Source of the DNA: a virus
Virus genome (UHGV): UHGV-0144373
DNA length: 64,000 bases
Reading direction: 5' to 3' (one strand)
In this document: one piece after another, positions 56,941 to 58,560 of the stretch
Position numbering within the stretch: position 1 is the first letter of the stretch
Layout of the letters: each line of letters begins with the position of its first letter
Position numbers and translations under genes: made by a program
The notes under the pieces: generated by a model
What the model saw: only the letters and a program-made list of their open reading frames with translations
Databases searched by the model: none
What the model was told of the DNA's origin: nothing

Positions 56941-58560
56941 TATACAACCCTTTCCCTTTCCTTTCCAGAATCTTTCCACTGATTCGATAAAGCCTATCTC
57001 ATACCTTAAAAAGCAATAACTCTATAGCCTATTCTATAGCCTTTTATCAAATCCACTAATTGGCATTGTTACCAATCCCTTAAATATAAGCCCATAACCC
57101 GAAAGGGAAGGGCAACCCCTAAAACGCTCTATAACGCTCTATAACAGCCTTATCAACCTAACTTAATGGATTGCATTACCTCACCTTAAAAAGCTCTTTA
57201 CAGGGCTTTATAGAGCCTTAAAAGAACCTTATAAGGGTATAAGCTTTATCATCTCGTTAGTATTCTTGTGAACTACTAAAAAGGGTTTGATAGTTCCTTT
57301 AAAGTATGTTATAGGGGCTATAAAGTTACTTCAAAGTAACGTAAAAGTTGCTTAAAAGTTACGTAAATGCTAGCCACCTTTAACATTTTCTTAACAATTT
57401 CTTAACAATCCCTACATAGTTATACTTGTTAGCAACTTGTCAGCCCCTTGTTAAATCTCTGTTAAGACCATGTAAAAGCCTTGTAAGAGTCTTTGACATA
57501 GCCTTTAAAGCTCCTGTAAAGCCCTATAAAGAGCTATCCATACAGTTGAGGGGTAAATACTAGGGAGATACTAAAAGAGCCTATAAAGAGCTATAGAGAG
57601 CTTTTAAGAGGTATGTTTAAAGAATCACTAAAAGGGAAAGGGAACGATAAGAAAGAGATAGTGACCATGTTAACAGTTTGTTAAAAAGATTAAACACTTG
57701 TTAGGAACTTGTTAATTATCTTAATTGGTATTGTTACCAATCCCTACAAAATAACTCTTTAAAATTAACTATATAGCTCTTGTTAGTCATCTATTAAGAA
57801 TCTGTAAAGACTATTCAGCACTTGTTAGAAAACTGTTACACTCTTGTTAGTTCTGTTAAGAATCTGTTAAGACCTTTAAAGAGATGTTAAGACGATGTGA
57901 GAACTGTTAAGAGATTGTTAAGGATATTTTAAAATTTTGCAAAGGGGGTGTTAAGGAGCTGTTAAGGGCTACCAAGCAGATATACATCCTAATCAGATAT
58001 TTTTCAGTTCCTTCAAAGACCCTAAAAAATGACTTGATAGTCCTATTTTATAAAAATTTTAAAATTCTGAATAATTACCTATACAGTCTTTTAAAAATAC
58101 AGGTAGAAACAGGCTTATAAGATACCTTGTTAGTACCGTGTTAGACCTTGTGAGATAAGGTCTGTAAAGATATTCCTGTTAAGTTTGTTAAAACAGTCTA
58201 TATAGAGGCTTAGTAATACCTAGTGAACACCTATAGAGGGTATCATAGCTAACCTAATGGGTTACTGTTAAGTAACACAGGTAACCTAGAGATTAAGAGG
58301 TGTATAGGAGCTTCTAAGAGGGTATAGAGAGATGGTTAAGGTGATTGTATAGGTTGTTAAGAAGGCTTGTTAGAGGGCTATTTAGAAGGGTTATACAGAT
58401 GGCTATTAAGACCACTAGATAGTTACTAAGATACTATATAGTACTATATAACTATATAGAGAGTAAGATTAAGAAGGTTGTTAAGAAGGATAGATATTTT
58501 ATTCACATATGATGGTGACCCAGAGGTTGGGACAACCGATAAAATTTTATAAAAAATATA
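56941..58560. repeat. ORF-free region dense in short direct and inverted repeats
   Basis: No ORF of 60 aa or more on either strand; at least 15 copies of TGTTAAG(A/G) and its complement TTCTTAACA, often as pairs about 11 bp apart; the palindrome TTGG(C/T)ATTGTTACCAATCCCT occurs twice (57061, 57725); short tandem duplications; AT-rich blocks. Confidence 0.85.

Follow-up and report, generated by a model that had tools for sequence, protein, structure and literature searches.

Phased TGTTA repeats in the putative concatemer-junction and terminal-repeat region of a Felix O1-like phage

Positions 56941-58560 of the virus genome UHGV-0144373, analysed here as a stretch of 64,000 nucleotides (the window), are gene-free DNA packed with short repeats, and very probably represent the terminal region of a Felix O1-like myophage (genus Felixounavirus), that is, its concatemer junction and packaging region with a direct terminal repeat (DTR). 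The locus is placed between the homologues of Felix O1 open reading frames (ORFs) ORF23 and ORF24, where two transcription units converge. The block of plus-strand genes on the ORF22-23 side is closed by a Rho-independent terminator at 56901..56923 (plus strand; stem 56901-56917 with 7 pairs, 5 of them GC, followed by a T run), and the block of minus-strand genes on the ORF24 side by a second one at 58585..58612 (minus strand; stem 58603-58589 and T run). An earlier reading of the DNA without database searches (the sequence-only reading) had proposed both terminators as brackets of a region lacking ORFs of 60 aa or more. Both were recovered by a consensus scan, and between 56980 and 58444 no such ORF was found on either strand, the largest being 45 aa.

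Database searches returned 257 phage records that match the region at about 78-93% identity, nearly all of them from Felixounavirus or the related Ounavirinae genera Mooglevirus and Suspvirus. By alignment to relatives with mapped ends (Bal31 digestion plus run-off sequencing, PhageTerm, or an adapter remnant), positions 57373..57973 (601 bp) correspond to a DTR that is present in the window as a single collapsed copy. Specifically, the record of phage Pr103Blw carries a 581-bp 'short direct terminal repeat' annotated at both ends, which was determined with PhageTerm (PMC8303462) and which, aligned to the window, covers 57373-57973. The record of Ro111lw starts at the same base as the left junction, and its right junction follows 613 bp downstream, which is the published DTR length, also a PhageTerm value (PMC6454146). 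For UAB_Phi87, time-limited Bal31 digestion and run-off sequencing gave a DTR of 608 bp (PMC4837284), compared with 614 bp by our homology mapping. The large terminases of UAB_Phi87 and Felix O1 were furthermore reported to cluster with terminases of the DTR type (PMC4837284). Not only Pr103Blw and Ro111lw begin at the left junction but also other, unrelated submissions, and the record of pEP20 was opened exactly at the right junction.

A more distant relative, Erwinia phage vEam_W_25 (Kolesnikvirus; PP079183.1 83000-84658), has an exact 401-bp repeat at both ends of its record. The right copy abuts AGATCGGAA, the last 9 bases of the record and a remnant of an Illumina adapter, at the homologous right junction, which indicates a true DNA end at this position; in the deposited GenBank record itself AGATCGGAA is a contaminant. 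Several independent lines thus put physical ends inside the region, so that the window would show the collapsed concatemer-junction form with one 601-bp copy of the repeat. This is the pattern of a short, exact and non-permuted DTR as in T7 or SP6, aligned base for base with the DTRs of Pr103Blw and Ro111lw and of a length that fits UAB_Phi87. Among the four roles that the sequence-only reading had listed without choosing one (replication origin, packaging initiation site, partition-like site and genome-end region), genome end and packaging are borne out by the homology to mapped DTRs, and nothing supports a partition-like site. It is noteworthy that the DTR is already known and annotated in Felixounavirus, a well-sampled genus that the sequence-only reading missed.

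The positions of the two cuts follow from this homology. The left cut, GCTA↓GCC (the arrow marks the cut), would fall between 57372 and 57373 and form the left end of the virion DNA, and the right cut, CTACC↓AAGCAG, between 57973 and 57974 would form its right end. In the window the left junction reads ACGTAAATGCTA↓GCCACCTTTAAC (57361..57384), with an imperfect palindrome (I2) centred at about 57362, and the right junction CTGTTAAGGGCTACC↓AAGCAGATATAC (57960..57985), the latter supported by conservation and by the vEam_W_25 adapter. The patterns ACGTAAA(T/A)G(C/T)TA↓GCCCCC(T)TTA(A)CAT and GGG(C/T)TACC↓AAGCAGATATAC hardly vary among Felixounavirus, Mooglevirus and Suspvirus, and Erwinia phages also match the right junction. 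With a conservation of 0.96 (0.92 against Moogle/SUSP1), the right-junction block 57961-58010 is among the three most conserved 50-bp blocks, the other two being located in the right flank. Read outward, the left end finishes with ...TTGTTAAGAAATTGTTAAGAAAATGTTAAAGGTGGC-3' on the bottom strand and the right end with ...GGTGTTAAGGAGCTGTTAAGGGCTACC-3' on the top strand. Most relatives have TGTTAAGGG at both ends with 4 or 6 more bases after it, which means that the two termini carry the unit in inverted orientation.

The repeats that fill the region were compared with dinucleotide shuffles. Strict copies of TGTTAAG(A/G) occur 10 times on the plus strand and twice on the minus strand, versus 0.15 and 0.10 expected from 1000 shuffles; the sequence-only reading had counted at least 15, which is slightly too many for the strict 8-mer (12 copies) and too few for the family. 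TGTTAAG was found 12 times on the plus and 2 times on the minus strand (14 in total, about 0.5 expected), and TGTTA(A/G) 25 and 4 times (1.9 and 1.5 in shuffles); in the rest of the window these motifs reach a density of 0.16-0.26 copies per kb. An excess over shuffled sequence was one of the points on which the sequence-only reading had allowed itself to fail, and the counts are far beyond chance. The motif pairs that it quoted are present at 57853-57874 and 57389-57410, its AAGTTAC units with a phasing of about 11 bp form a Tandem Repeats Finder array of period 11 at 57322-57367 (AAAGTTAC, 4.2 copies), and the palindrome-containing site of 21 bp does occur twice. The underlying observation is real and statistically overwhelming.

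The 3-mer autocorrelation at lag 11 amounts to 4.5 times the median in the whole region and 9.2 times in 57373-57973, with harmonics at 22 and 33, and a lag-11 peak was absent from two coding controls. Tandem Repeats Finder reported 15 rows with periods of 6-22 bp, nearly all of them 10-12, where overlapping rows with different periods represent the same array. Motif discovery by expectation maximisation yielded a loose frame of 8 nt, C-T-N4-A-G, which is A/T-rich in the centre. All matches to this frame, most TGTTA-type units included (CTGTTAAG, CTTGTTAG), add up to 45 sites versus 4.3 +/- 2.0 in shuffles, or 27.8 per kb in the region versus 2.7 per kb in the rest of the window, and 16 of the gaps between neighbours measure 10-12 bp versus 0.03 expected. 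The frame hides two classes of units, namely the TGTTA class and a looser CT-N4-AG class with A/T centre (CTATAAAG, CTTTAAAG, CTATAGAG) that occupies much of the flanks and of the DTR centre. When distances are taken from TGTTA to TGTTA, 9 of 12 in the window, 9 of 10 in phage Moogle and 10 of 11 in phage SUSP1 come to exactly 11 bp, whereas frame-anchored gaps between TGTTA-class units scatter over 10-12 bp. Similarly, of 30 adjacent pairs of mixed subtype from ten genomes, 19 keep 11 bp from G to G of their GTTA cores while the spacing of the CT frame shifts to 10 or 12. The truly phased element of the TGTTA-class units is therefore TGTTA and not the CT-N4-AG frame. It forms chains of three to six direct repeats with a step of exactly 11 bp, both in and beside the DTR.

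The orientation of these chains is organised around the cuts. The left cut lies inside a gap of about 25 bp between a rightward chain of four AAGTTAC-type units (AAGTTAC/AAGTAAC/AAGTTGC, exactly 11 bp apart; plus strand, 57322..57367 with units at 57323-57356), which runs towards the cut, and a leftward chain of three TGTTAA direct repeats (minus strand, 57378..57410 with units at 57408-57380), which are 11 bp apart, point outward, start 6 bp from the left end and are conserved across genera. Inside the DTR the polarity of the units flips at about 57415, and beyond this position they point right as far as the right cut. TGTTA chains are thereby directed outward at either DNA end, and from both sides they run towards the left cut. 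The first rightward chain consists of five to six TGTTA-type units (CTTGTTAG, CTTGTCAG, CTTGTTAA, CTGTTAAG, ATGTAAAAG, CTTGTAAG; plus strand, 57425..57490) and forms with 57378-57408 an imperfect inverted repeat of 31 nt (I1). It is followed by the DTR centre (57495..57660; conservation 0.87-0.89), where CT-N4-AG units (CTGTAAAG, CTATAAAG, CTATAGAG) with Tandem Repeats Finder arrays at 57502-57531 and 57574-57614 surround a conserved, non-repeat G-rich block at about 57540-57570 (GTTGAGGGGTAAATACTAGGGAGA). A cluster of TGTTA-type units (ATGTTAAC, TTTGTTAA, CTTGTTAG, CTTGTTAA) lies on the plus strand at 57667..57720, and a long rightward TGTTAAG-type array on the same strand (57780..57973) reaches the right cut with its last two units, GTGTTAAGGAG and CTGTTAAGGGCTACC.

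On the left, the DTR is preceded by a non-coding flank of about 430 bp (56941..57372) with CT-N4-AG units of 10-11 bp (CTCTATAG, CTTAAAAG, CTTATAAG), a lag-11 signal of 3.8 times the median and a Tandem Repeats Finder array at 57119-57145; it is conserved in 9 genomes and in virion DNA would lie just inside the right-end copy of the terminal repeat. Directly outside the right cut follows a conserved A/T-rich block of about 140 bp without TGTTA units (57974..58110; conservation 0.90-0.96) that contains the small inverted repeats I3 and I4. The remainder of the right flank (58114..58500, plus strand) holds mixed TGTTA-type and CT-N4-AG units in a looser phasing of 10-12 bp. In virion DNA the right flank would come to lie just inside the left-end copy of the repeat, with gene-free DNA of about 590 bp on that side.

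The sequence-only reading would have been weakened if related phages lacked the array, but it is kept in four genera. Felix O1, Moogle, SUSP1 and six other genomes, at about 75-90% identity, share the architecture with 1.62-1.76 kb of non-coding DNA and 33-47 frame units each, and the lag-11 peak, measured in four genomes, is dominant in all four. In Erwinia phage phiEa21-4 the version is 1.4 kb long and contains TGTTAAGA arrays as well as a left-flank array of CTTCTAAG, and the layout is thereby common to four Ounavirinae genera. The five TGTTA positions are 0.71-0.81 identical against Moogle/SUSP1, compared with 0.57-0.66 for flanking and spacer positions, and a frame-anchored conservation profile shows the same excess of core over spacer. 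Among the 24 indels of at least 5 bp in the nine-genome alignment, 9 measure 10-12 bp, 7 measure 22-24 bp and one measures 32 bp, that is, approximately multiples of 11 bp, which indicates that the helical register is preserved.

A palindromic element of 21-23 bp, ATTGG(C/T)ATTGTTACCAATCCCT, behaves like a tiny mobile insertion within the region. The window contains two copies versus 0.01 expected, both on the plus strand: the first (TTGGCATTGTTACCAATCCCT, 57060..57080) is an insertion of about 22-23 bp found only in this genome among 9 aligned, and the second (57725..57745) is a 22-bp insertion absent at that position from the 8 other aligned genomes. Throughout the nine-genome alignment the element occupies five different positions, all of them in the terminal non-coding region, and at one of these it is inverted; it is located elsewhere or inverted in Tf, UAB_Phi87, Ro111lw and Andreotti. 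In the aligned relatives it was found at 2868-2886 and 3519-3537 of L001, 1753-1771 (minus strand) of L004, 1301-1319 of L011 and 364-382 of L012. Its length of about 22 bp would preserve the 11-bp register on insertion.

In phages with short DTRs such as T7 and SP6, adjoining genomes in a concatemer are separated by one copy of the repeat, which the terminase cuts at either boundary and which is duplicated in the course of packaging. In the phage described here, the terminase complex would accordingly cut concatemers at GCTA↓GCC on the left and CTACC↓AAGCAG on the right, with duplication of the repeat as in other short-DTR phages. The TGTTA chains may serve as a scaffold that a protein occupies head-to-tail on one face of the helix. 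Such a protein would label the junction, determine where the cuts fall and possibly organise or protect the ends, and it might be either the component by which the packaging machine recognises DNA or a host protein that is recruited. The main argument for such a junction-marking scaffold is the polarity of the units around both cuts. The sequence-only reading had seen a helically phased site array for a DNA-binding protein; its phasing and architecture are strengthened by the exact 11-bp spacing of TGTTA, the higher conservation of core over spacer, the indel steps of about 11 bp and a match to the site architecture of a real transcription factor (see below), and binding itself we infer from these features. 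We consider it probable that the arrays are protein-binding sites, and about an even call whether they serve packaging recognition. The reading as a whole, with a DTR and concatemer junction whose arrays act as a protein scaffold marking the junction for cutting and packaging, is the one that we favour on balance.

Several points weigh against it. The termini of this isolate were placed by homology and could be a few bases off, as the two values of 608 and 614 bp for UAB_Phi87 illustrate. The region does not adjoin the terminase gene as classical pac sites do (terL is gene 52), no small terminase has been recognised in Felix O1-type phages (PMC4837284), and the ten flanking proteins are without known domains (no Pfam match; all PHROG families of unknown function). 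About half of the units, those of the CT-N4-AG class, differ from TGTTA and may have another role or none, and they are also clustered at about 19 kb, in a divergent promoter region. Finally, phased repeats beside a terminal repeat need not be individually essential.

Among the other explanations, the one that survives best makes the TGTTA arrays functional sites for the phosphorylated form of the host regulator ArcA (ArcA-P), which would be used as an architectural or end-binding factor, or be titrated, and would link phage DNA transactions to anaerobic gut conditions. ArcA-P sites in E. coli are composed of TGTTA direct repeats with a centre-to-centre distance of 11 bp, often three to five in a row or 22 bp apart (PMC3798270). 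We built a position weight matrix from 115 of the boxes in Table S3 of that study, with a native maximum of 21.5 bits. Within the 1.62 kb of the region there are 12 boxes of at least 13 bits, compared with 6 in the remaining 62 kb and 0.42 in shuffles; for boxes of at least 16 bits the numbers are 4, 0 and 0.08, respectively. The two best boxes lie on the minus strand at 57380 and 57391, within 6-36 bp of the left end, and with 22.7 and 22.5 bits they surpass all native boxes used; the cluster at 57667..57720 has ArcA-type boxes of 18.8 and 15.0 bits, and the AAGTTAC array scores 9.6-14.1 bits as ArcA-type. Exact TGTTA-N6-TGTTA pairs were found 11 times versus 0.01 expected. The region has at least two TGTTA repeats at 11 bp with scores within the range defined by chromatin immunoprecipitation (about 9 bits or more), as is characteristic of ArcA-P sites. 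Furthermore, boxes of at least 13 bits recur in ten Ounavirinae genomes, among them Felix O1, Moogle, SUSP1 and phiEa21-4; each homologous region has 9-14 of them, also where the sequences differ.

The match also appears specific. Out of 23 letter-permuted matrices, 22 gave at most 3 matches and one gave 8, compared with 12 for the true ArcA matrix, and T7 ends are without ArcA-type boxes. Among the OmpR/PhoB-family consensus patterns tried only that of ArcA matches; those of PhoP, PhoB, CpxR, OmpR and PmrA gave no matches in the region. A phage-encoded binder with an ArcA-like winged helix was considered as well, but tblastn found no match in the window or in any Felixounavirus record, and the lack of a detectable ArcA-like DNA-binding domain in Felixounavirus genomes speaks for the host protein. 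F-like plasmids and Xer/psi are known examples of mobile elements that recruit ArcA. With regard to the phage collection searched with the ArcA C-terminal domain, we observed as contamination bacterial contigs (Salmonella AFYI01000007, AGRM01000005) and short 'phage' records that encode host ArcA at 99% identity.

A screen of Salmonella by randomly barcoded transposon sequencing in aerobic LB weighs against a required role: arcA was not a resistance hit for Felix O1 although it scored for another phage; arcB was a hit for Felix O1 but shared with a T5-like phage, and the authors credit RpoS (PMC8744999). In addition, 8 of 35 units read TGTTAG, with a G at a position where only 3% of native boxes have one, and neither the CT-N4-AG units nor the CTTCTAAG units of the Erwinia phage are ArcA-like. 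A match of 6 nt to one of many half-sites of host transcription factors could also be a coincidence. We therefore regard ArcA-P as a functional partner of the arrays as a doubtful proposition, and simple binding of ArcA in vitro as more likely than a role of ArcA-P as the selected functional binder. It is likewise unlikely, though worth stating, that Felix O1-like genome ends are built of high-affinity ArcA-P sites which start 6 bp from the DNA end and at which the regulator is recruited as an architectural or recognition factor for packaging, end protection or replication control, or is soaked up. If this were true, a gut phage with a strictly lytic life cycle would be tied to the host's oxygen state, and the packaging or end biology of a classic diagnostic phage would be linked to redox sensing. 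To our knowledge there is no lytic phage with genome termini organised around a host two-component regulator.

A replication origin, with the repeats as iterons for an initiator, might be located in the region or might even be its whole function. Large, gene-free, A/T-rich (66%) and repeat-dense DNA has the usual look of an origin, and the most A/T-rich 40-mers are found at 58044 and 58539. The units, however, are 11 bp long and present in 45-60 copies, compared with 17-22 bp for typical iterons, the only DnaA-box match is an isolated one at 58499, there is no GATC in the region, and the flanking genes are without an initiator domain, so that the set of elements typical of an iteron origin, with DnaA boxes, an A/T-rich unwinding element and a neighbouring gene for the initiator, was not found. 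The cumulative GC-skew maximum marks no origin and is uninformative, because it is expected where coding strands converge. The authors of the Felix O1 genome located both the early divergent transcription and the genes for replication at the intergenic region 96-97, which corresponds to about 19 kb in the window, and the mapped termini already explain the gene-free DNA. An origin is in our view improbable.

Slightly less credible still is the explanation that the repeats have no specific binder and form a slippage-prone spacer between convergent operons and genome ends, kept for its length or helical geometry. Indels that proceed unit-wise at about 11 and 22 bp are what slippage would give, and the 22-bp element hops within the region. 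Yet the cores are better preserved than the spacers between genera whose overall identity is 75%, the 11-bp TGTTA register is held while the surrounding frame slips, and strand polarity is organised around both cut sites. Intrinsic curvature was no more pronounced than in flanking genes according to a simple wedge model, with only local bends at about 57350-57379 and 58551-58585; this speaks against the spacer with low weight. Small proteins or a structured non-coding RNA as the product of the region are very improbable: several GenBank records do annotate one to six 'hypothetical proteins' under the match, but no ORF of at least 30 aa is common in position to more than 3 of 9 related genomes (a conserved protein gene would have told against the sequence-only reading), reading frames would be disrupted by the indels of 10-12 and 22-24 bp, and no Rfam family was found at the gathering threshold or at an E-value of at most 1 except for a chance match on a terminator. 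Small coding sequences annotated inside the arrays, such as Phi87_32-34 of UAB_Phi87 (L011) or gene 32 of phiEa21-4 (L016), are not conserved in position and frame across the family and are probably spurious gene calls.

Some further features of the region and the window are described for completeness. A scan for sigma-70 promoters gave 12 promoter-like sites in the region versus 7.1 +/- 2.4 expected, 5 of which are due to TTAACA, the reverse complement of TGTTAA, which resembles a -35 hexamer. The text on PhageMaP for the Felixounavirus Bas63 gives gene scores only and has no data on insertions in the region. Upstream of a plus-strand gene starting at 19155, the divergent intergenic stretch 18990-19150 contains 8 CT-N4-AG units (CTTAAAAG, CTTTAAAG, CTTAACAG), compared with a median of 1 per 500 bp, and two TTGACA hexamers occur at about 18957 and 18969; Tandem Repeats Finder reported no strict tandem array at 18990-19150. 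The units there may act as upstream elements of promoters, or early promoters may be a further target of the same binder. GATC is absent from the window (positions 1-64000) versus 184.6 +/- 12.2 in dinucleotide shuffles, and so are the 6-bp palindromes CTGCAG (17.6 expected), CAGCTG (15.9), ATGCAT (13.5), GGTACC, CCATGG, GAATTC, CTCGAG and others, which is a very strong avoidance of restriction and Dam sites. There are no Chi sites in the window. A catalytic group I intron is located on the minus strand at 16490-16765 (Rfam RF00028, 63.3 bits, E-value 1e-13).

Returning to the DTR and its arrays as a candidate scaffold for cutting and packaging, published work on Felixounavirus gives only the length and the existence of the DTR, and we found no account in the published literature of the phased TGTTA architecture, of its polarity around the cuts, or of its conservation into Mooglevirus, Suspvirus and Kolesnikvirus. 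What appears to be new is thus the TGTTA architecture in exact register, its polarity at both cuts, its conservation in four genera and the near-perfect match to ArcA boxes. The conserved junctions GCTA↓GCCCCC and GGCTACC↓AAGCAG allow true ends to be placed from sequence alone, and hundreds of Felixounavirus genomes, many of them candidates for therapy or biocontrol, have been deposited with arbitrary starts and with spurious small genes in this region. How short-DTR junctions are recognised is poorly understood even for T7, and an array of 1.7 kb with an exact 11-bp register and a defined polarity at both cuts offers a concrete cis-element that could be used as bait for the missing recognition factor.

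The DTRs of other Felixounavirus phages (608 bp in UAB_Phi87, 613 bp in Ro111lw and 581 bp in Pr103Blw) are homologous to the one described here, with 80-93% identity, the same junctions and the same position between ORF23 and ORF24. Phased short sites near a cut are also known from lambda, with the R sites of cosB and IHF, and from SPP1, with pacL and pacR, where a small DNA-recognition subunit binds them and thereby bends or wraps the DNA. The arrays described here resemble those cos and pac arrays in being phased short sites next to a cut. The lambda and SPP1 sites, however, are located beside or within terminase genes and number 3-7, whereas the present array lies away from terL (gene 52), has no IHF core and belongs to a genus in which no small terminase has been recognised. 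IHF itself, which resistance of himA and himD mutants to Felix O1 had suggested as a lambda-like accessory factor, was rejected, as the region has no WATCAR-N4-TTR core. The multi-repeat ArcA-P sites of E. coli share the TGTTA repeats at 11 bp, the extra repeats at 11 or 22 bp and the chains of three to five units, but they overlap promoters and have 2-5 repeats (Park et al. 2013, PMC3798270), in contrast to about 35 TGTTA units over 1.7 kb at the genome ends described here. Compared with native sites, the spacers here are also less A/T-rich, and a G often follows TGTTA(A).

The closest analogue is T7, which has an exact terminal repeat of 160 bp and a phased heptamer, (C/A)(C/A/T)TAAAG, inside the repeat and beside it on both sides. 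In the first 520 bp of T7 we found 17 copies of the heptamer, three of them within the 160-bp repeat, and a 19-fold autocorrelation at lag 13. These short-repeat arrays were reportedly named SRL and SRR by Dunn and Studier in 1983. The layout of phased arrays inside and on both sides of a terminal repeat is likewise found here, over 1.7 kb compared with about 180 bp per side in T7. The unit and the period differ (CCTAAAG and 13 bp versus TGTTA or CT-N4-AG and 11 bp), with only a loose TAAAG resemblance, and T7 is an unrelated podovirus with an identified small terminase. The likeness between the two genome ends is one of analogy rather than homology.

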